Source: an uncultured SAR86 cluster bacterium
GTDB lineage: Bacteria > Pseudomonadota > Gammaproteobacteria > Magnimaribacterales > TMED112
Direction: 5' to 3'
Assembly: GCA_902535365.1 (NCBI GenBank)
Contig: CACATF010000001.1
Location: forward strand, 248,765 to 312,764
DNA: 64,000 bases
In this document: positions 35,272 through 56,528 of the stretch, piece after piece
Layout of the letters: each line of letters starts with the position of its first letter
Numbering within the stretch: the stretch's first letter is position 1
Position numbers and translations under genes: made by a program
Notes under the pieces: model-generated
The model's input: the letters and a program-made list of their open reading frames with translations, nothing else
The model's database searches: none
Told to the model about the DNA's origin: nothing

Positions 35272-35275
35272 TGAT

Positions 35276-35752
35276 ATGAGAAAACAGCAAAATTTAGTTA
35301 AATTACAAAGAATAGCTCATATGTTTTATAAAATTAGATATTTGCGCTTCATTGCAAGATTAATCGAAATTTTTATAAGGATAATTTTTTCAGCAAGAAT
35401 ACCTGCAAAAATTGATTTGCCGAAAACAACCTTTTTTGCCCATAGTGCTCTAGGTGTAGTTATTAATGATAATTGTGAAATAAGAGATAATGTTTATATT
35501 GGAACTCATGTTGTAATTGGAGGTAACTCAAAAAGCATTGATGTTCCAATAATCAAGAGCAACTCAATAATTCATACTGGCTCAAATATCCTTGGACCTA
35601 TAACTATTGGTGAGGGTTCGGTAATTGCTCCAAATTCAGTAGTTACTAATAATGTTGCGGCCAGTTGTCTAATGGCTGGTTCCCCAGCAATTATAAAAAA
35701 AGAAAACATTAAATATGAGGACTACAGCCCATTTAGACAAATTGAGATTTAA
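35276..35752 (+). CDS. Serine-acetyltransferase-like hexapeptide-repeat (LbH) acetyltransferase
   Basis: HSALGVVI, P.I.....I..GS.ILGPITIG.GS.IA.NSVV..NV......AGSPA. Confidence 0.85.
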   Translation: MRKQQNLVKLQRIAHMFYKIRYLRFIARLIEIFIRIIFSARIPAKIDLPKTTFFAHSALGVVINDNCEIRDNVYIGTHVVIGGNSKSIDVPIIKSNSIIHTGSNILGPITIGEGSVIAPNSVVTNNVAASCLMAGSPAIIKKENIKYEDYSPFRQIEI

Positions 35753-35758
35753 ATTTGT

Positions 35759-36952
35759 ATGAATGTTAGTTTCAAGTTAAAGTGCTTCATAATCAAAATC
35801 CTTAGTAATTCAGAAAGCATTGAGGATATAAGTTCATTCTCCAAACAAGAAATTAAAGACTTAATTAAAATCATTGTATTCAACAGGCTGGAAAGCTATT
35901 TTTATAATTATCTGAGTATTACTGAGGCTTGTAAAAATTCAATCTTAATAAAAAAAGAAATAAAAAAACCCCTTTTCAAAAGAAATATATGTACATTTAA
36001 AACCCTTGGTGCATCTATAGGTATTTATAAACAGCTTAATAATGAAGGTATCAATTTTAGAATATTGAAGGGAGCATATTTGATAAATAAATTTAATTTA
36101 AAGCACAGGCAAATTAGAGATTTAGATATCTTGGTTGATCCTTCAGATTTAGAGCAAACAATTTCTTGTGCAAAAAAAGCTGGGTATTATTTTTATGAAA
36201 AACAATCAAAGGATGAATACCTTGATTTAGACCATAGGTATGCTTTACCTATGATGATTGATAAAGAAAACAACATTTTGGAAATTCACCATAGAATTAC
36301 AGATCCTAAGATATTTCAAAAATGCAGCATTTCTGAACTAATTATGAAGGATCGAGAATGCCTTAGATTTAAAGATTATGAAATTCAGCATTCATCAATA
36401 GAGGCAAATTTTTGTCATATTCTATACCATGGCATCGGTAAGCAATTTATGGATTGCGGACCACAGTTTATAAATGATTTGATTCTACTATCTGGAGGCA
36501 TCAATGATGGCGGTAAAAAACTTCAAAAGTTCATTCATCATGCAAAATTAGAAAAAGAGTTTTCATTGTTTGGTGCAATCTTGCAAAGATTTTCTGGATT
36601 AAAAATGGATTTGTATATGTCTCAATCAAATGTGCCAAAGCAAATCCTTGATGATGCCGCAAGTTTACTTATTTATAACGACTATAATCATAAAATGCTT
36701 GACTTATTTTTAAATAGATCAAACAAAGGCATCATTTTTCAAACTGCTCAAAAAATTTTCTCCAAATCATCAACCCAATCTCGTTATATGGTTAAATTAG
36801 ATAAAAGAAATTATTTTAGCTTTACAATCAAAAGGGTATTAGAACAAATAAAACACTATTCAATACCTTTTTTAAGATTATTTATGATGAATTTAACAAC
36901 CAACAAAATAAAAAAATATTCTCTAATTAAACATTTTTTAAATAATGATTGA
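35759..36952 (+). CDS. Nucleotidyltransferase family protein (NTP_transf_5 type, lasso-cluster associated)
   Basis: ILKGAYL...R.IRDLDILV...LEIH pattern of the uncharacterised nucleotidyltransferase family. Confidence 0.8.
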   Translation: MNVSFKLKCFIIKILSNSESIEDISSFSKQEIKDLIKIIVFNRLESYFYNYLSITEACKNSILIKKEIKKPLFKRNICTFKTLGASIGIYKQLNNEGINFRILKGAYLINKFNLKHRQIRDLDILVDPSDLEQTISCAKKAGYYFYEKQSKDEYLDLDHRYALPMMIDKENNILEIHHRITDPKIFQKCSISELIMKDRECLRFKDYEIQHSSIEANFCHILYHGIGKQFMDCGPQFINDLILLSGGINDGGKKLQKFIHHAKLEKEFSLFGAILQRFSGLKMDLYMSQSNVPKQILDDAASLLIYNDYNHKMLDLFLNRSNKGIIFQTAQKIFSKSSTQSRYMVKLDKRNYFSFTIKRVLEQIKHYSIPFLRLFMMNLTTNKIKKYSLIKHFLNND

Positions 36953-37595
36953 ACTAGTTAATGTAAAAAAAAGTTTTGTAGATTTTAAGCTAAAAAATAT
37001 TCTCATTGCACCAAAACAAAGAACCATACTTTCAAATATCAGTATAAAAATTGAAAACAATAAAGCTTATATTTTGCAAGGTAAAAATGGATCTGGCAAA
37101 ACCACTCTTCTCAAATTAATAGCTGGTTTATTAAAGCCTGATGATGGAACTATTGAAACAGATAAAGATTATATATCTTCATATGTTTCTACTTCTGAAC
37201 GTAGTTTTTTTTGGAGATTAACAGTTCTTGAAAACTTAATTTTTTTTAACAACCTAAATAAAAATGAAAACGTACAAAAAGAAATTATTTATGAACATTT
37301 AAACAAATATGGGTTGTCAAAATATTCAAATATTGAATTTATGAAATTGTCATCTGGCCAAAAAAGAAAAGTTTCAATCATAAGAGCATTGCTAAAAGAT
37401 CCAGATTTATATTTATTTGATGAAGTCTCAAATTCGCTCGATAAAGAATCAAAAGAAGACCTTATGCAATTTGTTAATGAAGCTTTAATTATTAATCAAA
37501 AGAAAACAATAATTTGGGCCACACACGACTCCCAAGAAGAAAAAATAATTAATGGTGAAATTATCAAAATAAAGAAGGGATTTATACAACAATGA
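36945..37595 (+). CDS. ABC transporter ATP-binding protein
   Basis: Walker A GKNGSGKTT, signature LSSGQKRK, Walker B LYLFDE, ERSFFWRLTV.ENL.FF. Confidence 0.93.
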   Translation: MIELVNVKKSFVDFKLKNILIAPKQRTILSNISIKIENNKAYILQGKNGSGKTTLLKLIAGLLKPDDGTIETDKDYISSYVSTSERSFFWRLTVLENLIFFNNLNKNENVQKEIIYEHLNKYGLSKYSNIEFMKLSSGQKRKVSIIRALLKDPDLYLFDEVSNSLDKESKEDLMQFVNEALIINQKKTIIWATHDSQEEKIINGEIIKIKKGFIQQ

Positions 37596-38428
37596 AGCTA
37601 GATATTAAAAGAGAGACAAATGAGTTATTTGCATTTCTTAAAAAAGACATGCTTATTTCAATAAGTTATAAAGCAAATATATTAAATTTTATTATATTTA
37701 GTATTTTTATAATAAGTTTTATTTCTTTTTTTTCATCGGGTATTGAAACCTTGATTCCTTTTGAAACTTCAAACCAAAAAATAAGTATTTTTGGTTTCTT
37801 CTTAAGTGGAGCAATTATAGTTGAAACCTCACTCAGGTTAGTGAGCAGCATGACAGCTACAGTCCGTTTTTATCAAATGAGTGGAATAGTGGAAGAAATA
37901 TTTTCTGAGAAAGATAGAAATGTGAGAAGAATCATTTATTCATCAACTTATAGTTCTTTGATAGCTCTCTCAAGAGTTATTTTTTATCTTTTGCTTGCAA
38001 TTTTTATTGAAAAAGAGCTTTTTTCAAGTTTGGATCTTTACTCTTTATTAGCTAGCTGCTTATTTATAGTTGTTACATATTTTGGGCTAACTGGTATAGG
38101 CCTTATTGCTTGTAGTTATACAATATTATTCAAGCAAGGTAATTTAGTAATAACTATGTTCTTGATCGTCTCATTATTCTTTTCAAATAGTTTTTTTCTT
38201 GTTGATCAACTCCCGCCACAAATACAATTTGTTAGATACTTAAGCCCAATTTCATACCTACTTGATTATTTTAGAGATATAGATAAATTTGTTAGTATTC
38301 CGGCTAATTTCAATGAAATATTTTTTCAAATCTTATTCATGAATATGATTTATTTTATTTTTGGAGTTATTAGTGTTAAAAAGGCAATTAATATTGCAAA
38401 AGTAAGAGGCAACTTAATTTTTTATTAA
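37592..38428 (+). CDS. ABC-2 type exporter permease
   Basis: About six TM segments, LP...Q....LSPISY..D..R C-terminal ABC-2 pattern; overlaps the ATPase gene. Confidence 0.8.
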   Translation: MKLDIKRETNELFAFLKKDMLISISYKANILNFIIFSIFIISFISFFSSGIETLIPFETSNQKISIFGFFLSGAIIVETSLRLVSSMTATVRFYQMSGIVEEIFSEKDRNVRRIIYSSTYSSLIALSRVIFYLLLAIFIEKELFSSLDLYSLLASCLFIVVTYFGLTGIGLIACSYTILFKQGNLVITMFLIVSLFFSNSFFLVDQLPPQIQFVRYLSPISYLLDYFRDIDKFVSIPANFNEIFFQILFMNMIYFIFGVISVKKAINIAKVRGNLIFY

Positions 38429-38434
38429 TACATT

Positions 38435-38695
38435 ATGAAATATAAAATATCTCCACAAATATTAATGACCAGTATGGATGGTGAGTCTATTATTTTAAAT
38501 CGAGATACTGGGCAATATATAGCGCTAAATATTACAGCATCAACAATTTTTGAATGTATAAATGATGGCGTATCTGAGACCGCGTTATTAGAAAAATTAA
38601 AAAAAATATTTAAAGTTTCTAATAGCGATATCGAACAAGATACAAAAAACTTCCTAAAAGAATGTATCGAAAAAAAGATAGTATTTGTTGAATGA
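38435..38695 (+). CDS. PqqD-family RiPP recognition element (lasso B1)
   Basis: 86 aa: DGESIILN..TGQY.ALN.TA..IFE......L...L...F.V.......D...FL; adjacent to B2 and C genes. Confidence 0.9.
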   Translation: MKYKISPQILMTSMDGESIILNRDTGQYIALNITASTIFECINDGVSETALLEKLKKIFKVSNSDIEQDTKNFLKECIEKKIVFVE

Positions 38696-39069
38696 ATGTA
38701 TTTTTAATTAAAATACAAATTTTTTTATATATTATTCTTACATCAATTTTTTTACGCATTCTCAGTTACCAACAATTAAATAAATTTATCAAAGGAAGTC
38801 CTTTTTTTATGAGTAGATCCAACCTATGTCAAAATGAATACTCAAAAATAGTTGAAAGACTTTCAAAAAAAATTAATGTAAACAAATGCTTTGTTAAGAG
38901 CATTGTTCTTTTTAAAGCACTAAAAAAAAATGGTTTTTGTCCACGTCTTATTGTTGGTGGCAGGTTTGTTGATTCAATTTACCATTCGCACTCATGGGTT
39001 GAACTGAAAGAGCAAAACTTGATATATCAAAACAAAGATGATTTTAAAGAAGTAATCAGATATACATGA
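38692..39069 (+). CDS. Lasso peptide leader peptidase B2 (transglutaminase-like)
   Basis: KCFVKSIVL (catalytic Cys), L.VG and HSHSWVE (HAWVE-type His motif); 125 aa. Confidence 0.9.
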   Translation: MNVFLIKIQIFLYIILTSIFLRILSYQQLNKFIKGSPFFMSRSNLCQNEYSKIVERLSKKINVNKCFVKSIVLFKALKKNGFCPRLIVGGRFVDSIYHSHSWVELKEQNLIYQNKDDFKEVIRYT

Positions 39070-40988
39070 ACACCTTTTTCTTACATAGATCAAAAAATAG
39101 CCATCCGAATAAAGAAAGTTTTGATATTGAGCAGAAAAAAATCTTTGCTTATAGGGAGTATGATGAATTCTTCTCGTTTACACACAAAAAAACTTATGCA
39201 TCATCATTTAAAAATTTAACAAAGAATAATGACAAAAAAAGATCAATTAATCAGATCTATAAGAGTGAAAATCTCATAGTTTTTTGCGATGCAGTTATAG
39301 AAAATTTAGATTTTATACTTGAACTTTTAAAGATTGATAAGTTGCTATCAAATGAAGAAATCTTTTTTTTGTTGTATAAAAAATATGACCAAGATTTTAT
39401 AAAATATATTAAGGGTTCGTTTAATTTTCTAATAGCTGATCTCAAAAAAGATGAATATATTTTTGGGTCTGACAGGTTTTGCACTAAACCATTATTTTTC
39501 TCAGTTCAAAATAATAATTTTTTTATTTCAACAGAAATTAAATCTTTCAAAAACCTAAGTATTTTTAATAAGTCACTTAATTATAAGACACTCTACAACC
39601 AGCTAGTGGTATCATTTCAAAAGCCAGGGGAAACCTATTTCAAAGATATTTCTAAAGTTGAAAAAGCAACAGTATATGTATATAAAGATGGATTATTAAA
39701 TTCAAAAAAATACTACAAGCTTTCCTCCTTGGGAAAAACACAATTACCCTACAAGCAAACAATTGATAAAACTAGGGAATTATTTTTAAAAAGTGTCAAA
39801 GCAAATTGTTACAGCAATACAAATGTAATTTCATCTATCACTAGTGGTGGCCTAGACTCATCGTCAATTACTGCTGCGTTATCTTATATTGACAGCAAAG
39901 AAATTAATTCTTATTCGGTAAACTTCTCAGGCATTAGTAAGGAGGACTTTTTAAAAAGTGATGAAAGAAAATACATAAATGAAATAGCAAAATTTAAAAA
40001 TGTATATCATGAATTTTGTATTGCACATGAGGATGGTCCTTTTAGCTTTCAAGAGAGATTTGATCATGATCTTGACCAGCCACTTTTAAACGGCAATTAT
40101 TTTTTTACAGATTATATTTACCCTAAGGTCCGCCAAAATGGTGGAAGAATATTACTTGAAGGAATAGATGGAGACACTGTCCTCTCATATGGATTTGGTC
40201 ATTTGATCGAATTGGGTAGAAGATTAGAATTTTTTTCGGCATTCAAAAATTATCAAAAACTTTGCAAAGGAAGAAAAAGAAAGCCTACTGTATATGACTT
40301 TTTAAAAAGCATAATTATAAAGCCAAATTTGCCTAGAAATGTAAATCAATTTCTAAGAAAAATTTTTGGGAAAGATACTTGGGAAGAAAGAAACCTTAAA
40401 AGGCTAAAAAAATCATATCATCCAAAAAATTTACAATCATTAATTGACCATACATATGGTTATAAAAGAGGAATATTTATAAATTCTCAACAAAATCATT
40501 TAAACGAGATTAATTCAAATATATGGGAATATATATTTTCATTCTCGTATGAAATTGCATGCTCATATGGTATTGAAGTAAGATTACCTTATTTCAATCA
40601 AGATTTAATTGAGCTTTCATTATCCCTTCCTTCAAATCTAAAATTTTCAGATGGTGTTGATAGGTATATTTTTAGAGAAGCGATGAAAGGTATTGTGCCT
40701 TTAAGTATTTTGAAAAAAACATCGAAGGCAGATTTAAGCTCATTAGGCAGAAATGATTTAAGAAAACATTCTAAAACCCTAATGAATTATTTTTCGAGCA
40801 ACTCTTATAAATTATATGGTGTAGTAGATAAAATATATATTGATAAATGCCTAAAATTTTTAACAAATGACAAGAATGGACATTTATATACATCTGTTTT
40901 GGCAGATCTTTATGCAATTGAAAAGTGGCTTTCCAAAGAGGGTTTTGATATTGATATAGAAGAATTTTCAAAGTGCTCAAAAATATGA
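39066..40988 (+). CDS. Lasso peptide cyclase C (asparagine synthetase-like)
   Basis: DRF..KPLF, SGGLDSS, G.DGD, EVRLPYF..DLIE, RYIFREAMKGIVP; no N-terminal Cys of a glutaminase-active AsnB; flanked by B1, B2 and precursor. Confidence 0.9.
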   Translation: MNTFFLHRSKNSHPNKESFDIEQKKIFAYREYDEFFSFTHKKTYASSFKNLTKNNDKKRSINQIYKSENLIVFCDAVIENLDFILELLKIDKLLSNEEIFFLLYKKYDQDFIKYIKGSFNFLIADLKKDEYIFGSDRFCTKPLFFSVQNNNFFISTEIKSFKNLSIFNKSLNYKTLYNQLVVSFQKPGETYFKDISKVEKATVYVYKDGLLNSKKYYKLSSLGKTQLPYKQTIDKTRELFLKSVKANCYSNTNVISSITSGGLDSSSITAALSYIDSKEINSYSVNFSGISKEDFLKSDERKYINEIAKFKNVYHEFCIAHEDGPFSFQERFDHDLDQPLLNGNYFFTDYIYPKVRQNGGRILLEGIDGDTVLSYGFGHLIELGRRLEFFSAFKNYQKLCKGRKRKPTVYDFLKSIIIKPNLPRNVNQFLRKIFGKDTWEERNLKRLKKSYHPKNLQSLIDHTYGYKRGIFINSQQNHLNEINSNIWEYIFSFSYEIACSYGIEVRLPYFNQDLIELSLSLPSNLKFSDGVDRYIFREAMKGIVPLSILKKTSKADLSSLGRNDLRKHSKTLMNYFSSNSYKLYGVVDKIYIDKCLKFLTNDKNGHLYTSVLADLYAIEKWLSKEGFDIDIEEFSKCSKI

Positions 40989-40995
40989 GTTTTTC

Positions 40996-41031
40996 TTGCA
41001 CTTTTCTTAAATTGCTGTAACATTTGACAAT
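40996..41031 (+). promoter_or_regulatory. Putative sigma70 promoter for the precursor gene
   Basis: TTGCAC (40996-41001), 16 nt spacer, TAACAT (41018-41023), 8 nt before ATG 41032. Confidence 0.4.
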
Positions 41032-41172
41032 ATGAAATGGGAAAAACCAGAAATTAGTTATTTAGGAAGTCTGCAAGAGCTCACAAACATGCCATCTGGC
41101 GAGGGCGACACAAAAGACTTCGGATTCAATGATGGAGAAGTATTTTCAGGTAATCCTATTGGTTCAACATAA
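41032..41172 (+). CDS. Lasso peptide precursor A (46 aa), not in ORF track
   Basis: MKWEKPEISYLGSLQELTN-MPSGEGDTKDFGFNDGEVFSGNPIGST: WxxP RRE-binding motif, LG, Thr at -2, Gly/Asp-rich core; fills the gap between cyclase and kinase. Confidence 0.9.
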   Translation: MKWEKPEISYLGSLQELTNMPSGEGDTKDFGFNDGEVFSGNPIGST

Positions 41173-42060
41173 TTGCTAAACCATCATTATAGGCACCTCG
41201 GTTTAAAAATAACCTCAGATTCAAAGCTTCTTTTTCTTGAAGAAGGCAATCATTGTAGTTCAGGTGCTCAAATCATCATATTAAATAAGGAAAATCTTAA
41301 AAGTAAAAGAAAAAACAATACATCTACGTGGGTATTCACTGCAAATCACAAAAAGATAGAAATTTACAAGAAGGGCATATGCTTTATAGAAATAATTAAT
41401 GGCAGGGAGATCCACTACAAAAAATTAGGCAAATTTAATAATATTGATTTTTCTAAATTTATAGCAAATTTAGTTTTTGGCTATCTTCTTTTTCAAAGAA
41501 AAGAAATTGTACTGCATGCATCATGTGTTTCTAAAAATGGAAAAGCAATATTATTTTGTGGTCCTAGTGGAAGTGGAAAGTCAACTTTGGCTGCCCAACT
41601 TTTGTCAAAATTCAGTTTTATGTCTGAAGACTTATCATATTTAATAAAAAAGAAGAACCAAATTTATGTATCATCTTCTATCCCGTTCATAAAATTGGAC
41701 CCTAAAATCTCTAGCTTCATAGAATGTCAAAATAAGTATATTTTGCAGAGCGATCAGTATAAAAGAGATTTTTGTGAAGTTTCTAGCCATCATTCAAAAA
41801 ATACTGCAGAAGTAAATAAAATTATTTTCTTAAAATGGGGAACAAAAGACAAATTTTATAAACCGTCAATTAAGGAAGCTTTAATACTCTTCATTAATAA
41901 TACATTTAAAAAAATTCCCTATTCCCCAAGTTCTGAACATTCCATAAAAATATTTCACTTCTTCAAAAAACTGAATGAATCATCTGAACTTTATGTTCTA
42001 ATGCGAAAAAAGGAAGAAAAAATAGCAAATGGAAATGATTTTTTTGATACAATGATTTAA
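41173..42060 (+). CDS. HPr-kinase-like protein (putative lasso peptide kinase)
   Basis: VLHASCV..NGKAILFCGPSGSGKSTLA......FMSED; TTG directly after the precursor stop. Confidence 0.85.
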   Translation: MLNHHYRHLGLKITSDSKLLFLEEGNHCSSGAQIIILNKENLKSKRKNNTSTWVFTANHKKIEIYKKGICFIEIINGREIHYKKLGKFNNIDFSKFIANLVFGYLLFQRKEIVLHASCVSKNGKAILFCGPSGSGKSTLAAQLLSKFSFMSEDLSYLIKKKNQIYVSSSIPFIKLDPKISSFIECQNKYILQSDQYKRDFCEVSSHHSKNTAEVNKIIFLKWGTKDKFYKPSIKEALILFINNTFKKIPYSPSSEHSIKIFHFFKKLNESSELYVLMRKKEEKIANGNDFFDTMI

Positions 42061-42120
42061 CCTAAGGTATCCTAAAACATGTTTTTAATAAAAACATTTT
42101 AGAGAAGAAATTTAAAATTA

Positions 42121-44983: not shown

Positions 44984-45413
44984 ATCAGTACTATTTGTTT
45001 GCATTGGTAATCATTGTCGTAGTCCTGTAGCTCAACATCTTTTAATGAGCTTGAACAATAACATTAATGTTAGTTCTGCAGGGATAAGCCCTTTATTTTC
45101 AAATGATATGCATCCTTTATCAAGAGAATTTCTTGACTCTAAAAATATAAATCATGCAGTACATCATCCTAGGAAATTTGATGTTAGTGATTTTGATAAA
45201 TTTAATTACATTATTGTGCTTGACGATATAATTGGTGCGCAGCTTTTAAGAAAATATAGTCAGCATTCATCAAAAATATTTAAAATAAATCACTTTACAC
45301 CCTCGATTTATACTCCTGACCCTTTTAAATTAAGTGAGATAAAATATAATCAAATTATGTGTAATATTGATACATTAGTGAGTAATTGGAATAATTTTTT
45401 AGTAGGGAAGTGA
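44961..45413 (+). CDS. wzb: Low-molecular-weight protein-tyrosine phosphatase
   Basis: VLFVCIGNHCRSPVA P-loop, SAG, DPF; start may be TTG 44970. Confidence 0.9.
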   Translation: MSRLEQIKSVLFVCIGNHCRSPVAQHLLMSLNNNINVSSAGISPLFSNDMHPLSREFLDSKNINHAVHHPRKFDVSDFDKFNYIIVLDDIIGAQLLRKYSQHSSKIFKINHFTPSIYTPDPFKLSEIKYNQIMCNIDTLVSNWNNFLVGK

Positions 45414-45414
45414 A

Positions 45415-46659: not shown

Positions 46660-46660
46660 T

Positions 46661-47860: not shown

Positions 47861-49074
47861 ATATAGCTAATTCAGCAATTAGCTTAACATTGGCAAAAAT
47901 TATTGGCATTGGGTGTCAATTCATCTCAATATCTATAATCACTAAAAATTTATCTTTAGATAATGTAGGAACCTTCCTCCTTTTCTTAACATTCACTTTA
48001 TTAGCAAGGTTTTTATCAAGTTTTGGGTTTGATCAAATATTAATTCGGGAAATATCTAGAGAAAAAGAAAACAAAAAATCCTTTGGCAATACCTTTATTG
48101 TTTCACTAATATTCAATTGTTTGATTTCATCAATAATCTATTTGATTTATATAAATTTCTTCGATTTTAGCCTTCAAATAAATAACTTATTAATATTTTT
48201 GAGTTTTATTATGCAAGGAATTTTTGGCTCTTGTATTGGTTTGATAAGAGGGTTTGGAAAAAATCTAAAGGCACAAATTCCTGAAGGGTTGTTAATGCAT
48301 TTATTTTTTCTGGTTTTAATAATTATTCATAGCAACATAGAAATAATCAGTCTAAAAACATTATTTTTAAATTATTTTTTATCCTCAACAGTTGTATTTT
48401 TAGTTTATTTTTCTTTGATAAAAGATATGAGGTTGAATTTTAAAGGTTCGCTAAAAAAAGATTTTGTAAAGTATTTTAAATCAGCAGGGCAAATTATTAT
48501 TATACTTGCATCCACCTATGCAATTATAAAAAGCCCAACACTAATAGCAGCAATTTTTTTAGATATTCAAGAGGTCGCTTTAATAGACATCGCGTTAAAA
48601 GTAGCAAGTATCCCAATTATTCTAATTTCTAGCATTGGAGCAACTTATGCTGGTGTCTTTTCGAATTTAAAGGGAATGGGTTTTAAATCTAATTTTAATG
48701 CCTTGTCTCAGGCGGTTCTTTTAGGATTTATTCCATCATTGATATGGACAATCTGCTTAGTTTTTTTTGGAAAAGACATTATTAAAATTCTTTTTGGTGA
48801 TCTATATCTAGAGGCGTATCCTAGTTTGATAATTTTATCTATATCATATTTATTAATATCGATAGGATCTGTATCAAGTGTTATGTTAATTCATCAAGAT
48901 AACGAATCAATCCTTTTAAAATTGAGTACTTTTTCAATTCTGGTGTTATCATTTTCAGCGGCATTGTTAGACCTCAATTTAATTAAAATATCTTTGATAT
49001 TTATGATTAGCATCATAATCAGAGATATTGGCAGTTTACTTTATGCCATGAATATACATTTGAGAGCTTCATGA
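47857..49074 (+). CDS. Wzx-like oligosaccharide flippase
   Basis: About 12 TM segments, flippase-like N-terminus (L....VG.F...FG.D..LIRE), ILFG..Y..A; start ATG 47857. Confidence 0.78.
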   Translation: MNIANSAISLTLAKIIGIGCQFISISIITKNLSLDNVGTFLLFLTFTLLARFLSSFGFDQILIREISREKENKKSFGNTFIVSLIFNCLISSIIYLIYINFFDFSLQINNLLIFLSFIMQGIFGSCIGLIRGFGKNLKAQIPEGLLMHLFFLVLIIIHSNIEIISLKTLFLNYFLSSTVVFLVYFSLIKDMRLNFKGSLKKDFVKYFKSAGQIIIILASTYAIIKSPTLIAAIFLDIQEVALIDIALKVASIPIILISSIGATYAGVFSNLKGMGFKSNFNALSQAVLLGFIPSLIWTICLVFFGKDIIKILFGDLYLEAYPSLIILSISYLLISIGSVSSVMLIHQDNESILLKLSTFSILVLSFSAALLDLNLIKISLIFMISIIIRDIGSLLYAMNIHLRAS

Positions 49075-50330
49075 TTAAAAGTTTTGATTTAAAAAATATT
49101 CTCTTTACTTACTTTTTAGGCATATTTATTTTTGGGGCATTAAATAAAATCTTCACAGCACAAAACTCAAGTTATTTTGATGAAATTTTTATTCTTATTG
49201 TGGTCCCTTTTGCCCTCTATTTTTTAATACGTAATATTTTTAATTTTAAACTAGCAATAATATTCCTAATACTTCATATAGCAGTGTATTTAATTTCATC
49301 CTTGCAAACTATTTACGATGGTAGAATTACCGCTCAACTTACATTATTAAGCCTTTTCCTTGAGTTTAAATACTTCTTATTATTTCTCTTTTTAGCCCTC
49401 TCAATCCAAAAAAGTAAAATCTCTTTTGAATCACTTCATAAGGCATTAAGTAATTTATTTATTTATATAACAATCCTAAATGCTCCATTTGTTTTTTTTG
49501 ATATCCTGATTAGCGATTATTCAATTTTAGGATTTCCATTGCAGTCAAATAACTTCTTAAACATTAATGCTGCACAGGGGCTTTTTGTGCATAAGTTCTA
49601 TCTCGCTTTATGTTCTGTACTTTCAGCAATATTTTGCTGCATAAATTATCTAGTAACAAATTCAAAAAAATATCTCACTCTTTTCCTTCTTAGTTTATTA
49701 ATTCTCTTTTTGTCATATAGTCTCAAAGAGCTAGCAATCGGGCTCTTTTGCCTCGCATTAATTATTTATCAAAAACTAAGGAATCATAGAATCTTTTCAT
49801 TAATCATTTTTGTAGCTACTATTTTAATAATACCTTTAGGCTTAATATTTTTTTTAGGAGAAAGATCATATTACTTTACTGATATTACAGTTCGTGGTCT
49901 CTTTTATTCTTCATCAGTTGATATTGCAAATAACTATTTTCCTTTTGGAGCTGGGACAGGAAAATTTGGAAGCACAGTAGCATCTGATTATGCATACAGT
50001 GAGCTATATTTCCAGTATGGGATTGCATATATATATGGAGGAACAACAACCTATGGACAATATTTGACTGATGTTGGATATGCAAAGTATCTCGGTGAAT
50101 CAGGCTGGATTGGCATTGCTTTTTTATTGTTTGCATTTATAACTCCAATTTTTTCAGCATATGAAAAGTCTCACCTGTTTTCATTGAAGTTTCTTACAAT
50201 ATTGCTTCTTGGGCTCCTTATTATTACCAATAATTTTGCTTCAACTATTCAGAACTCTGATTTTGGTTCCATGCTCGTTGCATTATACTTCGCAATATAT
50301 AGCTCCACATTCCAACCTCATGAAAAATAA
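49071..50330 (+). CDS. Wzy-like polysaccharide polymerase / O-antigen ligase-like membrane protein
   Basis: Polytopic membrane protein with periplasmic loop R..FY.....A..YFPFGAG.G.FGS and LGESGWIG; next to wzx. Confidence 0.72.
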   Translation: MIKSFDLKNILFTYFLGIFIFGALNKIFTAQNSSYFDEIFILIVVPFALYFLIRNIFNFKLAIIFLILHIAVYLISSLQTIYDGRITAQLTLLSLFLEFKYFLLFLFLALSIQKSKISFESLHKALSNLFIYITILNAPFVFFDILISDYSILGFPLQSNNFLNINAAQGLFVHKFYLALCSVLSAIFCCINYLVTNSKKYLTLFLLSLLILFLSYSLKELAIGLFCLALIIYQKLRNHRIFSLIIFVATILIIPLGLIFFLGERSYYFTDITVRGLFYSSSVDIANNYFPFGAGTGKFGSTVASDYAYSELYFQYGIAYIYGGTTTYGQYLTDVGYAKYLGESGWIGIAFLLFAFITPIFSAYEKSHLFSLKFLTILLLGLLIITNNFASTIQNSDFGSMLVALYFAIYSSTFQPHEK

Positions 50331-51399
50331 TAGTAGAAGTAGCCTCATATTTATTGGTCCTATAGCATTAAAGGGTAAAGCAGCTCTTGGTGGTTTCGAG
50401 AGTGCTAATCGGAATATGATTGATTTTTTAGAAAGAAATAATATCGAAGTCAAAGAAAAAAGGTATCCTGATGCAAGAAGCAATATTCTTAAAAAATTAA
50501 GCCAATATTTGCTTAGGTACCTTAATATCTATATAAGTTGCATCCTGATGAGAAAGAAGGATATCTTGTGCGCAACTCCTATGAATAGAAGATTTATTTT
50601 TTTGGAATTGATTTATTTCATAATTGCAAAATTTAAGAAAAATAAAATAATTATAATAATGAAAGGTGGTAGACAGATTGATGATTACAATAGGTTTAGC
50701 TCAATTTACAAATTACTTTATAGGTTTATCATAAGGTCTGCCAACTTAGTTTTTTATGAAATAAAAGATTATTCATATTTTGAAAAATACAAAAGTAATG
50801 GTGCAAAATTTATCTACCTTCCAAATTGTTCAGAGCACATACACCATAAAAACAATAAACAAAGCCATTCCTTCTTATACGTGGGCTTGATAAATGAAGA
50901 CAAAGGTTGCCTTCATGCAATAAATACCTTCAAAAAAATAAAGAATTCATTAATAAATGCTGAATTAAATTTTGTTGGAAGATGCAGTAGAGGTATGCAA
51001 GAAAAAATAAATCAAAATAAACATCTTGATATAAATTATCTTGGAGAAAAAAGTGTGCATGAGCTTAAAGATATTTATGCAAAACATCAGTTCTTTATTT
51101 TTTTATCAAAGTACTATGGAGAAGGCCAGTCAGTAGCTCTTACTGAATCACTAAACTATGGCTGCATACCAATTGTAACAATCCATAGAGGAAATGCTGA
51201 TGTTATAGGAGAATATGGAATTGCATTTGAGGATAGAGATAATTTTGAACAAAATTCAAAACAAATAATAAATTATATAAAGACTAGTAATTTACATGAA
51301 CAAAAAGAATATTACATTAACCATTTTAAAAAAAATTACTCTAATGATTTCGTATTAAAAAGATTCTTGGATGGCTATAAAATATTAGTTAAAGATTGA
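50320..51399 (+). CDS. GT4 family glycosyltransferase
   Basis: FLYVG.I...KG, EGQSVALTES...G..PI; start ATG 50320. Confidence 0.85.
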   Translation: MKNNSRSSLIFIGPIALKGKAALGGFESANRNMIDFLERNNIEVKEKRYPDARSNILKKLSQYLLRYLNIYISCILMRKKDILCATPMNRRFIFLELIYFIIAKFKKNKIIIIMKGGRQIDDYNRFSSIYKLLYRFIIRSANLVFYEIKDYSYFEKYKSNGAKFIYLPNCSEHIHHKNNKQSHSFLYVGLINEDKGCLHAINTFKKIKNSLINAELNFVGRCSRGMQEKINQNKHLDINYLGEKSVHELKDIYAKHQFFIFLSKYYGEGQSVALTESLNYGCIPIVTIHRGNADVIGEYGIAFEDRDNFEQNSKQIINYIKTSNLHEQKEYYINHFKKNYSNDFVLKRFLDGYKILVKD

Positions 51400-51405
51400 G
51401 ATAAT

Positions 51406-53205
51406 GTGATGAAAAAAGTTCTTTGGTATTTATACAGAATAAGATCCATGTCTTTTTTTGAAATAATTCACAGATTCAAAGAAATTGCTTTTAGGCAGTT
51501 ATTTAAATCGAACTTCATGAGAAAGAATCTTTCATCTTCTTTTGTGTTCATTAATAATGCGAAATTTAGGGATTTATTTGTTTCACTCCCATTAGAAAAA
51601 AAAAATAAATTAATAGAACGGGCTGAGGGAATTATAGAGGGTAAATTTGATTTTCTTGGCATTGATATTGATTTAAACAGTTATGAAAGCTTAGAAGTAA
51701 ATGATTTGTGGTTCTATGATTTTATCCATAATAAAAAACACACTCATCAGACGGCAACTAATAAGATAAATTATAAAAATAGAGATGACATATGTGATAT
51801 GAAGTTTATCTGGGAAGTGCATCGCCTTTATATTGTTCAAGATTTAAGTGTTGCCTATTTTCTAACAGGCAATGAAAAATTTTTAAAAAATGCTACAACA
51901 TATGTAAAAAGCTGGTTATCAAATAATAAAGTAAATTTTGGACCAGGATGGAATTCAGGCATTGAGATCTCAATCAGATCAGTTTCACTCCTCATTTTTT
52001 TATCATTATGTGAGAAAAAAATTGAAAAAAAACTTTTAACTAAAGTTTTTAACTGCTTAGAATATTCAAGATTATATCTTAACTTATTCCCCTCTCTTTT
52101 TTCTTCAGCTAATAATCATTTAGTTGCTGAAATTGTCGGCAAGTTAGCAATTGAAAGCTTTACAGATTATGATCAGCTTAAAACAAAAAAACTGTTTTGT
52201 GATTTAGATAATGAAATTTCTAAACAAATACTATGTGATGGTGTCCCAGCTGAACAATCGCCTACTTATGGAGCATTCACATTAGAGTTTTATTGGTTGG
52301 CTCATCACTTATTCGGAAAAAATATATCTGTTAAGAACAATATAGTTAACTTCAAGAATTTTATTTTTAACATTCGGCAAGGAAGTAAAACAGCATCAAT
52401 TGGAGATGATGATGAGGGATATGTTCTTTCTTTTAACAGGTCAACAGATTATGCTGCTGAAATTTGTAATTTATTCAGTACGGAAACGAAAAAATCATCC
52501 ATAAAGACTTTTGAGGAAGGGGGTTATTCTGTAGTTCATAATCAAGGTTGGGATATCATTTTTGATCATGGACCACTTGGTTACTTGTCAATTTGTGCTC
52601 ATGGTCATTCTGATGCTCTTTCACTACTAATGAGTTATAACCATAAAAATGTACTCATTGATGCGGGGACATATCTTTACCATGGTGGCGGGAATATTCG
52701 TAATAAATATAGAAGTACCGCAATGCATAATACCTTAAATATAAATAATGAAAGTCAAAGCACAATATCAGGACATTTTAATTGGAGTAAAAAAGCAAAA
52801 TCGTTTTTAGTAGCGTCTAAAGCTATGGAAGATGATTGGTTTTTTGTTGCTCAGCAAAATGGCTATAAAAAGAAATTTAAAGTTACCCATGAAAGAAAGC
52901 TGAGCATGCAAAATAACTCTATTTTCGTTGAAGATAGGTTTCTGGAGGATATTGATGTAACAAGCAATATTAATTGGTTATTATCACCGGAAGTTATTAT
53001 TGAAAAGCATACAGACTTTCTTATCCTCATTATTGAGGGAGGTCAGAAAATAAAGGTAGAATTTCCAAATTCTGGAACAATAAATATCAATAAAACTTAT
53101 TTCTCACCATCCTTCAATAAACAAGTCTCCACCACTCAAATTTCATGGACAGGACAGGTAGGATCCACATATATTTCTACAAAATTCACTCCTATATATG
53201 AATAA
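51406..53205 (+). CDS. Heparinase II/III family protein
   Basis: WE.HR, E.SIR, SANNHL.AE, EQS..Y, GD.D.G, HGHSDALS, DAGTYLY, RST.MHNT. Confidence 0.88.
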   Translation: MMKKVLWYLYRIRSMSFFEIIHRFKEIAFRQLFKSNFMRKNLSSSFVFINNAKFRDLFVSLPLEKKNKLIERAEGIIEGKFDFLGIDIDLNSYESLEVNDLWFYDFIHNKKHTHQTATNKINYKNRDDICDMKFIWEVHRLYIVQDLSVAYFLTGNEKFLKNATTYVKSWLSNNKVNFGPGWNSGIEISIRSVSLLIFLSLCEKKIEKKLLTKVFNCLEYSRLYLNLFPSLFSSANNHLVAEIVGKLAIESFTDYDQLKTKKLFCDLDNEISKQILCDGVPAEQSPTYGAFTLEFYWLAHHLFGKNISVKNNIVNFKNFIFNIRQGSKTASIGDDDEGYVLSFNRSTDYAAEICNLFSTETKKSSIKTFEEGGYSVVHNQGWDIIFDHGPLGYLSICAHGHSDALSLLMSYNHKNVLIDAGTYLYHGGGNIRNKYRSTAMHNTLNINNESQSTISGHFNWSKKAKSFLVASKAMEDDWFFVAQQNGYKKKFKVTHERKLSMQNNSIFVEDRFLEDIDVTSNINWLLSPEVIIEKHTDFLILIIEGGQKIKVEFPNSGTININKTYFSPSFNKQVSTTQISWTGQVGSTYISTKFTPIYE

Positions 53206-53255
53206 AAATTACACCTAAATAGTATTGAGATCAAAAGCGCTTTATAATTAAAGCT

Positions 53256-54515
53256 GTGCGATTGTTTGGTGTCATTCATTTCTTTAGTGTTTTGCTAGTT
53301 TTTGGGTTGGTGCTGTATGCCTATGTTGAGTTAAACAATTTTTACATTCTTTTGCTTTCATTAATGTTCCCAGTAATGTTCACAGCCCATATTTTCTTTC
53401 AACCTTACAAGACTTCTCATGCGGTTGGTAATAAATTATTACGTGCAATATCATCATGGGCCACTATATACCTTTTCATTGTTCTAGTATTCTTCTTATC
53501 AAAGACAGGATCAGAGTTTTCAAGAATTGGTGTTACAACAAGTTTTATTTTTGCCGCTTTTTTTGATTTTGTTTTAATTATTCTGCGAGATTATATAGGC
53601 AAACATAATTTAGATTCTGTTTTAATTATTTCTAATGATAAAGAAAAGTATCAAAGACTAAATAAATCTTTTTATGGTTTAAAGGTTTTGGATATTCTTG
53701 AGCCAGATGAAGAACTAAATATTGAAAATATTGTAAGTAGCTATGCGCCGGATAAGTTAATTATAGATGCCAAAAAAAACTTCCTTAATAGGGTTTCTCA
53801 CGATCTTCTTGATTTAAGGTGCGAAGTAATTGTTGTCCCAAGCTTTCTTGATGATATTTATACAAACAATAGAACAACAAAAATTTTTGGCATGTTTGCT
53901 TTCCAAACAACTAAACCAAGTTACAGAAATGTAGACGAACTTTTGTTGAAGAGGTTTTTTGATATTTTAACAGCTCTAGTGCTTTTAATTCTTTTTTCAC
54001 CCTTATTTGTTCTTGTATCTTTCCTGATAAAAATTACCTCTTATGGCCCCATATTGTTTATTCAACAAAGGCATGGAAAAAATGGAAGAATTTTTAATTT
54101 ATATAAGTTTAGATCAATGAAAGTTGAGAAGGATGATAAATTTTCACAAGCTAGGCGCCATGATCCAAGAGTAACTCTAGTTGGAAGGTTCATTAGAAGA
54201 ACATCCATTGATGAATTGCCACAATTATTCAATATCTTAAAAGGCGATATGTCATTGGTTGGTCCAAGACCACATGCAATTGAACATAATCAGATGTATG
54301 CAAATAAGATAAGGAATTTTATGAGTAGACATAATGTAGTTCCAGGAATGACCGGCCTTGCACAAATACGAGGGCAAAGAGGAGAAGCCAATGAAGAGAA
54401 TATGAAGAATAGATTTAATTCTGACATGGAATACATTCAGAATTGGTCACTATTCCAAGATATCAAAATACTATTTTTAACAATACCATCGCTTTTTAAC
54501 AAAAATATATATTAA
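53256..54515 (+). CDS. Undecaprenyl-phosphate sugar phosphotransferase (WcaJ-like priming transferase)
   Basis: KRFFD, YKFRSM, DPRVTLVGRFIRRTSIDELPQLFNILKGDMSLVGPRP, PGMTGLAQ. Confidence 0.93.
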   Translation: MRLFGVIHFFSVLLVFGLVLYAYVELNNFYILLLSLMFPVMFTAHIFFQPYKTSHAVGNKLLRAISSWATIYLFIVLVFFLSKTGSEFSRIGVTTSFIFAAFFDFVLIILRDYIGKHNLDSVLIISNDKEKYQRLNKSFYGLKVLDILEPDEELNIENIVSSYAPDKLIIDAKKNFLNRVSHDLLDLRCEVIVVPSFLDDIYTNNRTTKIFGMFAFQTTKPSYRNVDELLLKRFFDILTALVLLILFSPLFVLVSFLIKITSYGPILFIQQRHGKNGRIFNLYKFRSMKVEKDDKFSQARRHDPRVTLVGRFIRRTSIDELPQLFNILKGDMSLVGPRPHAIEHNQMYANKIRNFMSRHNVVPGMTGLAQIRGQRGEANEENMKNRFNSDMEYIQNWSLFQDIKILFLTIPSLFNKNIY

Positions 54516-54526
54516 ATAAATTCAAT

Positions 54527-56491
54527 ATGAGTATCAGATCATTTTTTACTTCTAGGAATTTTACAGTCTTAGTTCTTTTATTGAGCAAAATTATATTTGG
54601 TAATGCAGAAACCATTAACAATATGGGGACTGTGGGGCTTTCAAATAATCCCACTGCAAGATTTCACTCTGAAGGTTCAGTATCCATGCATCTTGTTAGA
54701 CAGCAGGAATTCTCAAGAATAAACATTGTTGCACAACCTTATGAATGGGCGGAATTCTCCATATTTTATGCAGATGTATTTGAAGGAGAATATCCAGCAT
54801 CTATAAATCAATCTTACAAAGATAAGGGCTTTAACATGAAATTAAGACTTTATGAAGAGACTGAAAATATGCCACAAATTGCTCTAGGATTTTCAGATTT
54901 TGCAGGAACAGGACTGTTTTCAGGTGAATATATTGTCGCGAGCAAGAGATTTGGTAATTTTGATATATCTGGGGGTATTGGATGGGGCATATATGCCAAT
55001 GGAATTAAATTTGATAATCCACTAATTGAGCTTAGCAAGAGTTTTAAGACAAGAAATTTTTTATATGACTCAGTTGGAGAATTTGATGCCGATGATTACT
55101 TTTCTGGCAGTGATAGTTCAATATTTCTATCAGCCTCTTATCATTTTGGTAAAAACCTTATTTTTGTTGAATTAGATTCTGTAGGGTATAAGTTCAATAA
55201 ACTTAACGAGCTACAAGATTACTCTGATTATAAATTTGGATATAAAAACACTGATTTTTTTGGAGCAATTTTGGGCCTAGAAGTTGATGACAAAGGTAAA
55301 GTTAACTTTCAAATTGAATCTACCTTCAATATATCTAAATTAAATACTAATGCACCCAACATAAGCAAAAAAAATGATTCAAGGCTTATTAATTTTTTAA
55401 TTAATACCCAGGATAATAATATTTCTGTCAATGAAATAGAATCAAATGCTAAAGATCAACTAATTGTATCTATCAGGCAAAAATCTTATTCAAATATAAG
55501 TGATGCAAATGATGTTATTTTAAAGTCACTTGAAAATTCGAACATTCATGAATTTAACGAAATAATTGTAAAAAACTATCTCTTAGGGAAAGAAATAACA
55601 AAAGACTTCTATACAGACGAAACTAAAGGTTTTTATGAACAGGCTGTTTTAGGCAAAAATAAAATATTTAAGAGACCAAATGAATATCCATTTTTTACTG
55701 GAAGATTTTCTCCTGATCTAAGGTTGTTATTGGGTGCAAGAGAAGGTTTTTTATACCAAGGCCTATTTTTAAAATATGACTCAGAATTATTTTTTAATGA
55801 AAATACCTTTATTGACACAACTTTAAGACTATCTTTATCTAATAATTTTGATGGTCTGTTTATACCACCTGTCACAACTTATCCTGAACAGGTAAGATCA
55901 GATGTTAAAGAGTATCTAAAAGGATTTAATGATGGTTTAGCAGTTTCAAAGTTATTAATATCAAATTTCCAAAAATATCAAGATAACTACTTTCTTTTTA
56001 ATGCAGGGCTTTATGAAGAAATGTTTGGTGGATTTGGTTTTGAATACCTTAATTTTTCTAGAAAAAGAACTTTTGCATATGGTTTAGAAATACATAAAGT
56101 AAAAAAAAGAGCATATGACCATAGATTTGAGTTTTTAGATTACAAGACAACAACAGGGCATTTAAATCTTTACCATCATTACCAACCCCTCAATCTTGTA
56201 ACACATATTTCTTGGGGGCAGTATTTAGCTGGCGATGAAGGCCTAACATTTGACATGCATAAAAGATTTAAAAATGGAGCCAAGATTGGAGCATACTTCT
56301 CTTTAACAGACGTAAGTTTTGAAGATTATGGAGAAGGCTCTTTCACAAAAGGGGTTTACATTTCAGTACCATTTGATCCATTTGGTTTTGGCACTTCTAC
56401 AAATTTTAATTGGACACCTTTAACAAAAGATCCTGCACAAAAGCTATTAGTCAATAGAATCTTTAATTATATAGATAGATATGCTTTTTAA
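54527..56491 (+). CDS. YjbH/GfcD family exopolysaccharide outer-membrane protein
   Basis: G.VGL...PTARF, YKDKG...KLRL..E....PQIA.G..D.AGTG.F.GEYIVASK, EEMFGG.G.E, GQYLAGD.G, YGEGSFTKG.YIS.PF. Confidence 0.9.
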   Translation: MSIRSFFTSRNFTVLVLLLSKIIFGNAETINNMGTVGLSNNPTARFHSEGSVSMHLVRQQEFSRINIVAQPYEWAEFSIFYADVFEGEYPASINQSYKDKGFNMKLRLYEETENMPQIALGFSDFAGTGLFSGEYIVASKRFGNFDISGGIGWGIYANGIKFDNPLIELSKSFKTRNFLYDSVGEFDADDYFSGSDSSIFLSASYHFGKNLIFVELDSVGYKFNKLNELQDYSDYKFGYKNTDFFGAILGLEVDDKGKVNFQIESTFNISKLNTNAPNISKKNDSRLINFLINTQDNNISVNEIESNAKDQLIVSIRQKSYSNISDANDVILKSLENSNIHEFNEIIVKNYLLGKEITKDFYTDETKGFYEQAVLGKNKIFKRPNEYPFFTGRFSPDLRLLLGAREGFLYQGLFLKYDSELFFNENTFIDTTLRLSLSNNFDGLFIPPVTTYPEQVRSDVKEYLKGFNDGLAVSKLLISNFQKYQDNYFLFNAGLYEEMFGGFGFEYLNFSRKRTFAYGLEIHKVKKRAYDHRFEFLDYKTTTGHLNLYHHYQPLNLVTHISWGQYLAGDEGLTFDMHKRFKNGAKIGAYFSLTDVSFEDYGEGSFTKGVYISVPFDPFGFGTSTNFNWTPLTKDPAQKLLVNRIFNYIDRYAF

Positions 56492-56494
56492 TCA

Positions 56495-56528
56495 TTAAAA
56501 AAATGGGCATGAATGCCCATTTTTTTAA
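56495..56528. terminator. Bidirectional rho-independent terminator
   Basis: Perfect inverted repeat TTAAAAAAATGGGCAT-GA-ATGCCCATTTTTTTAA between convergent genes, T-tract on both strands. Confidence 0.9.

Follow-up and report, generated by a model that had tools for sequence, protein, structure and literature searches.

A kinase/nucleotidyltransferase-type lasso peptide cassette beside a Wzx/Wzy exopolysaccharide locus in a SAR86 cluster bacterium: probably two products linked in one flexible-island lineage

Introduction

The island examined here lies in a 64,000-nucleotide stretch of DNA (the window) from an uncultured SAR86 cluster bacterium (GenBank assembly GCA_902535365.1, contig CACATF010000001.1) and joins a lasso peptide cassette to an exopolysaccharide (EPS) or capsule locus. 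The closest described relatives of the cassette are lasso clusters with a kinase gene. The psm cluster of Bacillus pseudomycoides, for example, contains psmC, A, K, B1, B2, N and D; PsmK phosphorylates the C-terminal serine of the peptide and PsmN is needed to place one or two hexoses on that phosphate (PMC6993621), chemistry that is also covered in reviews (PMC9266682, PMC8498205). The text of the original report leaves open whether PsmN makes the substrate of a separate glycosyltransferase (PMC6993621). In the paeninodin (pade) cluster of Paenibacillus dendritiformis, a homolog of HPr kinase phosphorylates a serine of the precursor before folding (PMC9266682, PMC8498205). The bsf cluster of Bradymonas sediminis provides a Gram-negative example with K, N and D genes and an isoleucine at leader position −2; its kinase, BsfK, phosphorylates Ser3 (PMC10368454). 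The same work defined the lasso leader motif YxxPxL at positions −17 to −12 (PMC10368454).

The window cassette resembles psm in having a cyclase, a precursor, an HPrK-family kinase, split B1 and B2 proteins, a nucleotidyltransferase and an ABC exporter. It departs from psm in its Gram-negative-type host (with Wza, YjbH and a TolC-like channel), its split ABC-2 pump, its gene order (N first, K last), its peptide end (Ser-Thr instead of Ser) and its position within an EPS island. Paeninodin, in turn, is the product of a Firmicute cluster without an N gene, and its phosphorylation target is strictly the C-terminal serine. With bsf the window shares the YxxPxL-type motif at −17 to −12 and a Ser3 in the core (predicted, in the window). 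The Ile/Val(−2) of bsf recurs in 12 of the 13 cassettes described below, whereas the window precursor has the classical Thr(−2), and the predicted ring would join Met1 to Asp7 in the window as opposed to Gly1 to Asp8 in BsfA. The text of PMC10368454 mentions no EPS neighborhood for bsf, and its supplementary cluster maps may show neighbors. Our literature searches found no lasso or HprK-related module linked to a capsule or EPS locus, within the same limit that the supplementary maps of PMC10368454 and PMC6993621 may show neighbors.

The HPr-rel-A system of NCBIfam (TIGR04352 and TIGR04353) also combines a kinase of the HPrK-like type with a PqqD-like protein and a gene of NTP_transf_5 type; the literature searches found no paper on it. 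The window is not a member of this system (K scores 35.5 bits against a cut-off of 200, a distant family match, and B1 19.3 against 35) and goes beyond it in having B2, a lasso-type cyclase and a recognizable precursor. For the EPS half of the island, the comparison is with group-1 capsule and colanic acid export in Escherichia coli, in which Wza, Wzb and Wzc operate with Wzx/Wzy. Both have a PCP-2a autokinase with a C-terminal tyrosine cluster, an outer-membrane polysaccharide export (OPX) protein, a low-molecular-weight (LMW) phosphatase and a priming transferase, as well as a flippase and a polymerase-like protein. The window differs in the order wzc-wza-wzb, in including YjbH and a heparinase II/III-like protein and in lacking wzi, which is present in one relative (genome G042).

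Two modules in one island

The island (35276–56491) sits between tRNA-Leu and aceE (56929–59538), and its 20 genes, called from a list of open reading frames (ORFs) and Pfam scans, all lie on the forward strand (Table 1). It belongs to genome G000 (0.93 Mb in 16 contigs, 87% complete) and is poorer in GC (0.275 in the lasso part, 0.303 in the EPS part) than the DNA upstream (0.361) or downstream past position 56929 (0.348). We consider it probable that the island encodes two separate products made by separable modules, which lie head to tail and became linked in one lineage of flexible islands. Module 1 (35759–42060) would be a self-contained lasso cassette and module 2 (42121–56491) an EPS or capsule pathway, probably with the acyltransferase gene at 35276 as an additional member. 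We favor two products because priming transferase, flippase and polymerase are all encoded within the EPS locus itself, because the lasso cores are hypervariable, because a TolC-like channel is encoded elsewhere in the genome and because the two modules occur in several arrangements.

A first-pass annotation of the window had noted the one-strand run from tRNA-Leu to yjbH, a lasso kinase ending 60 nt before wzc (stop at 42060, start at 42121), a clear terminator after the island and an EPS gene set with a nucleotide-sugar dehydrogenase, two GT4 glycosyltransferases, a flippase, a polymerase-like protein, a priming transferase and export proteins. The ORF, Pfam and folding analyses agree on each of these points, the polymerase being the weaker call because its match is below the cut-off.

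By its predicted gene content, the 42121–56491 region is a standard Wzx/Wzy-dependent EPS or capsule locus, with export and regulation by Wzc-Wza-Wzb. Its Wzc carries 12 tyrosines within the final 30 residues. The acyltransferase that precedes the cassette has serine O-acetyltransferase EpsC as its top NCBIfam model (93 bits, below the cut-off of 150). This gene adjoins none of the other 12 cassettes and has a homolog in the EPS island of genome G013; it more likely belongs to the EPS set than to the lasso cassette.

Table 1. Features of the island and its borders, with the evidence for each assignment.
Feature	Position	Strand	Evidence or remark
tRNA-Leu(taa)	35185–35271	+	ARAGORN, Rfam; left border of the low-GC island
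Hexapeptide-repeat acyltransferase, EpsC/CysE-like	35276–35752	+	Hexapep 46.3 bits
N, NTP_transf_5 nucleotidyltransferase	35759–36952	+	PF14907 73.3 bits (cut-off 31.2)
ABC ATPase, split exporter	36945–37595	+	ABC_tran 90.7 bits
ABC-2 permease, split exporter	37592–38428	+	ABC2_membrane 36.5 bits
B1, PqqD-type leader-recognition protein	38435–38695	+	PF05402 45.3 bits (cut-off 23.4)
B2, transglutaminase-like leader peptidase	38692–39069	+	Transglut_core3 23.5 bits (below cut-off, 26)
C, lasso macrolactam cyclase, Asn-synthase fold	39066–40988	+	Asn_synthase PF00733 105.5 bits
A, precursor, 46 codons	41032–41172	+	19-residue leader, predicted 27-residue core
K, HPr-kinase-related P-loop kinase	41173–42060	+	Hpr_kinase_C 18.1 bits (weak, below cut-off)
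K-wzc spacer, 60 nt	42061–42120	+	Best fold −7.3 kcal/mol, z = −0.62
Wzc, PCP-2a tyrosine autokinase	42121–44184	+	Wzz, GNVR and AAA_31 domains
Wza, OPX channel	44147–44983	+	Poly_export, SLBB_2, Wza_C
Wzb, LMW phosphotyrosine phosphatase	44961–45413	+	LMWPc
UDP-glucose/GDP-mannose dehydrogenase	45415–46659	+	Pfam
GT4 (first)	46661–47860	+	Pfam
Wzx flippase	47797–49074	+	Polysacc_synt 42.7 bits (above cut-off)
Wzy_C-like polymerase	49071–50330	+	24.9 bits (below cut-off, 31.7; weaker call)
GT4 (second)	50209–51399	+	Pfam
Heparinase II/III-like protein	51406–53205	+	Pfam
Bac_transf priming transferase	53256–54515	+	229 bits (above cut-off)
YjbH-family outer-membrane EPS protein, last island gene	54527–56491	+	PF06082 390 bits
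Intrinsic terminator hairpin, A and T runs on the flanks	56496–56527	.	−21.3 kcal/mol, z = −4.83

The lasso cassette and its precursors

The cassette comprises nine intact genes whose starts and stops overlap or are tightly spaced. Judged from these predicted proteins, it is a complete lasso cluster of the published kinase/nucleotidyltransferase-type class that includes paeninodin, pseudomycoidin and BsfA. The best NCBIfam models for B1, B2, C and K belong to the right family and all score under their strict cut-offs, as expected of a distant lineage: 42 bits against 80 for B1 (lasso_PqqD_Bac), 27 against 33 for B2 (NF033537) and 235 against 525 for C (the lasso cyclase model NF033535), with the score of K as given above. 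The catalytic positions are conserved. Cys66, His100 and Trp102 of B2 are invariant across 11 cassette homologs, in which the position of the gene is also kept; the PP-loop residues Ser260, Gly261, Gly262, Asp264 and Ser265 of C are invariant across 11 homologs; and His115 and the Walker A residues Gly130, Gly135, Lys136 and Ser137 of K are invariant across eight. The N protein has an Asp-x-Asp motif near residues 121–123. Its Pfam family is presumably also that of PsmN, to which we liken it by role.

The chemistry that we infer for the cassette would start with the binding of the YxxPxL-type leader by B1. K would then phosphorylate the precursor on a serine or threonine, which may be Ser3 or lie in the C-terminal Ser-Thr. 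B2 would cleave after Asn19, and C would close the ring between residue 1 and Asp7. N may then add a sugar onto the phosphate, and the ABC-2 pump would export the product, for which a TolC-type channel encoded elsewhere in the genome would be available. Phosphorylation of the tail followed by nucleotidyltransferase-dependent glycosylation had been suggested in the first-pass annotation. The suggestion is reasonable given the matching gene set, and such modification is already known for the class from pseudomycoidin (PMC6993621).

A TolC-like (OEP) channel is encoded in nine of the 10 lasso-positive genomes tested, G000 included; the exception is G235 (67% complete), in which no such gene was found. 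Because of this channel Wza would not be needed as an exit, and we rejected Wza as the sole outer-membrane route. In genome G108 a TolC-like outer-membrane efflux protein (L033:7110-8426) is encoded three genes away from the K end of the cassette and is possibly a dedicated exit for the peptide.

The window precursor has Trp(−17), Pro(−14), Ile(−12) and Gly(−8) in its leader, besides Thr(−2), and its core contains Ser3 and Asp7 and finishes in Ser-Thr, with threonine as the final residue. An ORF of 42–60 codons with W/Y(−17), P(−14) and I/V(−12) lies between C and K in all 13 cassettes, and the K gene always adjoins the precursor gene. All 13 precursors have a serine or threonine within their last three residues, and nine have an acidic residue at core position 7–9. 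The four that lack it (G002, G005, G013 and G024) are those at one chromosomal site, between a tail-specific protease gene and a DUF305 gene. The cores are hypervariable between genomes. Closely similar cores of 20–21 residues were seen in G008 and G017 (family f1) and in G108 and G170 (family f3) (loci L015, L019, L031 and L033); the others differ widely. In another family of the class, genome G293 has two tandem, near-identical precursor genes between C and K (L044:9009-9406), both with the lasso leader motif and a C-terminal serine.

Some cassettes have additional enzymes. Those at the protease/DUF305 site contain an extra gene of the endonuclease/exonuclease/phosphatase family, and a 2OG-Fe(II) oxygenase gene adjoins the cassette in G013, G024 and G235 (extra-enzyme loci L013:4125-5561, L014 with the same layout, L011:13520-14413, L012:5955-6755 and L032:14875-15480). 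These enzymes may provide further tailoring, for example as a phosphodiesterase or a hydroxylase.

The cassette is mobile relative to the EPS locus

A kinase hidden Markov model (HMM) built from eight homologs identified the cassette in 13 of the 266 genomes of the order. Eight belong to the genus of the window, two each to families f2 and f3, and one to f4. The gene maps derive from our own ORF calls (minimum 70 codons), several loci end at contig borders, and the genomes of the order are incomplete and their relatives non-independent. All 13 lasso genomes have the same gene set, with the leader-motif ORF between C and K. The N homolog is present in every cassette and the ABC gene in 12, with both subunits in 11; the G042 locus is cut by a contig end and no ABC gene was seen in the truncated locus of G067.

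Within the genus alone the cassette occupies five different contexts. It follows tRNA-Leu in G000, lies between metK and a cytidylyltransferase/mannose-6-P-isomerase-like gene in G008, between ahcY and a sugar epimerase gene in G001, at the protease/DUF305 site in G013, G024, G005 and G002 (21 kb beyond aceE in G013), and among genes for amidohydrolases and RNase PH in G017. Housekeeping genes flank the cassettes of G108, G170 and G067. Glycan genes adjoin the cassette in only four of the 13 genomes (G000, G001, G042 and G235); eight have none and G008 is ambiguous. Furthermore, the wzc-wza-wzb genes of G002, G005 and G013 directly adjoin aceE, and no cassette lies between them. The first-pass annotation had proposed one dedicated peptide-glycan system. 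That proposal is not supported, and the island is no obligate hybrid operon. The cassette has five contexts, and two of the three observations that the annotation had named as refuting the idea were largely made: cassettes mostly lie away from EPS genes, in the order (8/13) as well as outside it (16/17; see below), and related islands have the export genes and not the adjoining cassette.

The export genes have a history of their own. The Wzc and Wza of G005 are closest to those of G042, a member of another family (51 and 63% identity), whereas the G005 cyclase is closest to that of G002 (44%). The wzc-wza-wzb genes of G005 (f1) and G042 (f2) are 51, 63 and 52% identical, closer than those of G005 are to the genes of its congeners (L026/L018), and the Wzb proteins of G005 and G001 (L035) are 73% identical. 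These identities indicate that the export module has moved between families.

Evidence for a link between the modules

Several observations weigh against a purely independent existence of the two modules. The first is their strong co-occurrence, which cannot be disregarded. A search with the window Wzc matched 17 of the 266 genomes of the order, in two groups. Seven genomes (G000, G002, G005, G013, G042, G235 and G067) have the window-type protein (E <= 1.7e-56), that of G067 being cut by a contig end so that residues 311–684 alone align. The other 10 have a second subtype, which matches only from about residue 180–220 onward (E 2e-39 to 1e-23) and pairs with a short Wza. The lasso cassette is present in 7/7 genomes with window-type Wzc and in 6/259 others, and in 0/10 genomes with the second subtype (Fisher tests, 1e-10 and 5e-5, uncorrected for kinship). 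Genera g8 (25 genomes) and g4 (8 genomes) each contain one lasso genome, and in both genera it is the only one with window-type Wzc. G001 is an eighth case: its island finishes with wzb and a wza that is truncated at the contig border. The first-pass annotation had asked whether lasso and EPS genes co-occur across genomes: at the genome level they do so non-randomly, whereas clear adjacency to glycan genes is limited to the four cassettes named above.

The chromosomal site adds to this association. To guard against an assembly artifact, we located aceE in 17 of the 30 genomes of the genus and, for 11 further genomes, inspected the 20 kb that precede it. The G006 contig ends after 619 bases, and the partial aceE matches of G009 and G015 were left out. 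A wzc-type island precedes aceE in G000, G002, G005, G013 and G001 (the last entered from the wzb-wza at its contig end), and all five have the lasso cassette. Five others (G003, G008, G010, G014 and G022) have YjbH with a long OPX protein of 750–877 residues and neither Wzc nor Wzb; one of the five has the cassette. The remaining five (G004, G007, G016, G019 and G029) have no island and no cassette. Thus, the cassette accompanies the wzc-type island at this hot spot in 5/5 genomes versus 1/10 of the rest (p = 0.002). All wzc-lasso cases that can be resolved fall within about 30 kb of this one hot spot, and a search of the genome contigs for AceE returned eight distant loci (46–58% identity) and nothing more. 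The alternative type of EPS island, in which YjbH is likewise the final gene, was seen at L086, L092, L093, L095 and L096 (G022, G010, G008, G014 and G003, respectively). Poly_export matches occur in 160 of the 266 genomes, and the long type is widespread.

The arrangement of some loci points in the same direction. In G042 (family f2) the cassette is followed on one strand by wzi, wzc, wza and wzb and then by an AT3/SGNH acyltransferase gene, so the juxtaposition recurs in another family. In G235 the cassette stands at the end of a glycan locus that is 28 kb long and all on one strand. That locus begins with wzc-wza-wzb, and NeuB, two genes resembling CMP-sugar synthetases and a DegT aminotransferase gene are among its further members. 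In the window itself, no terminator-like fold was found in the 60-nt spacer between K and wzc (42061–42120), which folds no better than its shuffles, and transcription probably reads through from the cassette into wzc in G000, as far as the nucleotide sequence can tell. None of the RNA-library contigs (two runs covering 41077–41245, 43348–43538, 43780–44112 and 45134–45302; DNA is possibly present, and contigs cannot show transcripts) bridges 42060–42121. One metagenome contig has a one-base insertion after position 42113, within the spacer.

Similar modules outside the order bear on the question as well. Among 400 genomes sampled evenly from the class, the kinase HMM (E <= 1e-6) matched 66, mostly through the P-loop only, and we mapped the best 17 loci outside the order with HMMs of the in-order proteins and phmmer. 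Wzc, Wza and Wzb are absent within about 10 kb at 16 of the 17. The exception is G373, from an unrelated family, in which wzb-wza-wzc, an acyltransferase gene, B1, B2 and N lie on one strand and K and an ABC gene are convergent. We had considered it a third full case and downgraded it because no cyclase or leader-motif ORF lies within about 10 kb; its best cyclase-like gene is on another contig. In G603 (L056:6539-11477), a true HprK-related kinase A and an NTP_transf_5-type gene directly follow the amidotransferase of an XrtA/PEP-CTERM EPS locus (355 and 1081 bits, both above cut-off), an independent example of such a module in an EPS locus, and kinase/nucleotidyltransferase modules within EPS loci were seen in G373, G433 and G603. 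Besides G373, three outside-order loci have at least two glycan-type genes nearby (L049, L051 and L056). Overall, two or more glycan matches occur at no fewer than 8 of 30 kinase loci versus 0 of 20 control regions taken at round coordinates in the same genomes (p = 0.011), the locus counts being floors because the query set consisted of families already annotated. A single match occurs at 2/20 control regions, and for the outside-order loci alone the comparison is at least 4/17 versus 0/12 (p = 0.10). G603 and G332 (L057:9182-11472) contain true members of the HPr-rel-A system, in which kinase A is accompanied by a PqqD-like protein and by a gene of NTP_transf_5 type.

The histories of the two modules are decoupled in a comparison of pairwise identities. 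Those of Wzc, Wza and Wzb rise and fall together (rho 0.92 and 0.87) and are uncorrelated with those of K, C and N (rho −0.29 to +0.16 over 15–36 pairs), from which we rejected joint inheritance as a single unit; the lasso identities span just 23–44%, so this test of decoupling is low in power.

One product or two

The association could reflect a functional, non-covalent coupling in which the cassette would rely on the Wzc-type EPS pathway or influence it. Possible forms are the supply of sugars to the nucleotidyltransferase, a peptide that signals to or regulates EPS synthesis, and the co-expression of a weapon and a shield from one promoter. The co-occurrence in the order and at the hot spot, the terminator-free spacer and the modules in the EPS loci of G373, G433 and G603 are what this explanation would predict. 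It would also account for the nucleotidyltransferase end of the cassette facing sugar-nucleotide or capsule genes in G001, G008, G042 and G235, and the question about PsmN left open in the text of PMC6993621 gives it chemical room. Coupling fits less well with the eight of 13 cassettes that have no glycan neighbor or with the five lasso genomes (G008, G017, G024, G108 and G170, 60–82% complete) without the window-type module, in which neither a short Wza nor a convincing Wzb was found; four of these five share one distinct core type (the similar cores of G008, G017, G108 and G170). Nor does it explain the lack of any cassette in the genomes with the second Wzc subtype, the decoupled module histories or the hexosylated peptide that the psm cluster yields in E. 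coli, in an account whose text mentions no dedicated EPS locus (PMC6993621). We regard coupling in some form as a credible minority explanation. A more specific version is unlikely: that the cassette and window-type Wzc-Wza-Wzb are a functional pair in which EPS enzymes supply or transfer sugars to a glyco-lasso that stays with or regulates the capsule, and that modules of HPrK-like kinase, PqqD and NTP_transf_5 proteins (HPr-rel-A included) are widespread peptide partners of EPS.

A covalent peptide-glycan hybrid, in which a phosphorylated or nucleotidylated lasso tail would be joined to the polysaccharide as its primer, anchor or decoration, is very improbable. ABC-2 family transporters also move capsule and O-antigen polymers, and the exporter of the cassette belongs to this family by its Pfam assignment. 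The one-strand layout with its 60-nt spacer, the nesting of the cassette between an EPS-type acetyltransferase gene and wzc, and the phosphate-linked hexose on a lasso tail in the published account of pseudomycoidin (PMC6993621) would all suit such a conjugate. On the other hand, an EPS locus with its own Bac_transf protein, flippase and polymerase has no need of a peptide primer. The cassette occupies five contexts in one genus, wzc-type islands exist beside aceE with no cassette in between, and 16/17 outside-order loci lack Wzc, Wza and Wzb nearby. Hypervariable cores typify peptides used in competition, not a structural anchor, and no such conjugate was described in the literature searched. 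The chance that the cassette is a decaying or silent passenger, whose small ORF is no real precursor, is close to negligible. B2, K and C do score below curated family cut-offs and the predicted core begins with methionine, which is unusual for lasso peptides. Against this stand the nine intact and closely packed genes, the invariant catalytic residues, the canonical leader spacing and a 98.6%-identical copy in the metagenome of a second study, for which no frame breaks within the cassette are reported.

What favors two products from one island lineage over a need for Wzc machinery is that the association is limited to the Wzc subtype of the window. We attribute the co-occurrence, a cause that we infer, to shared descent and transfer within one island lineage at a recombination hot spot and not to a shared product. 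Linked transfer within one lineage is suggested by the single Wzc subtype, the single hot spot and the likeness between G001 and G042, whose lasso proteins are mutually closest (34% identity) and whose Wzb proteins are related (52%), a pattern consistent with both having been transferred together as a linked pair. The association was possibly reinforced by co-selection, the two modules being "social" traits of the cell surface.

Borders and environmental copies of the island

The hairpin after yjbH folds better than all of 200 shuffles and could be active in both directions. The consensus terminator scanner overlooked it, so terminators were called by folding; within the island the scanner returned two weak sites versus 7.2 expected by chance. 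An integrative element was considered and rejected, as no second copy of the tRNA-Leu 3′ end (up to three mismatches allowed) exists within the 64-kb window and no integrase-like gene is among the annotated island genes.

The stretch occurs in seawater and marine metagenomes. A 22,213-nt DNA contig from another study covers 35243–55100 with 281 differences (~98.6% identity), so an assembly chimera is excluded as the source of the arrangement. At the end of tRNA-Leu (35272), several metagenome contigs cease to match and run on into unrelated sequence; co-existing strains therefore have other content at this site. Further loose contig ends cluster at about 38603–38614, within B1.

The conserved gene before tRNA-Leu (34314–35177) encodes a UDP-glucose/GDP-mannose-dehydrogenase-like protein of 287 residues with the N-terminal and central domains and no UDP-binding domain; its counterparts in G001 and G005 are 85–86% identical. 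An 84-codon ORF on the reverse strand (56541–56795), located after the terminator and before aceE, has a hydrophobic N-terminus and a very acidic middle. Between G000 and G002, PheT (28079–30013, upstream of the island) shares 94.7% identity, and AceE (56929–59538), just downstream, only 74%. This mosaic of identities suggests that recombination may have replaced the island plus one flank.

Implications

With this cassette, the class of phosphorylated and glycosylated lasso peptides would extend to a marine lineage of Gram-negative type whose genomes measure only about 1 Mb. Genomes of this size rarely keep accessory chemistry. The 13 natural precursor variants, 12 with Ile/Val(−2) and four with non-canonical acid positions, are useful material for the study of leader recognition and ring size. 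The comparison across genomes also turns an anecdote from a single genome into a testable statistic: a cassette that is mobile and is nonetheless present in every genome of the order with window-type Wzc. If the link is functional, lasso peptides would gain a role at the cell surface besides antibiosis, and a curated, unstudied gene system would gain a function. If instead the cassette and the EPS locus hitchhike together, they would illustrate clearly how unrelated "social" traits become bundled at recombination hot spots of streamlined genomes.

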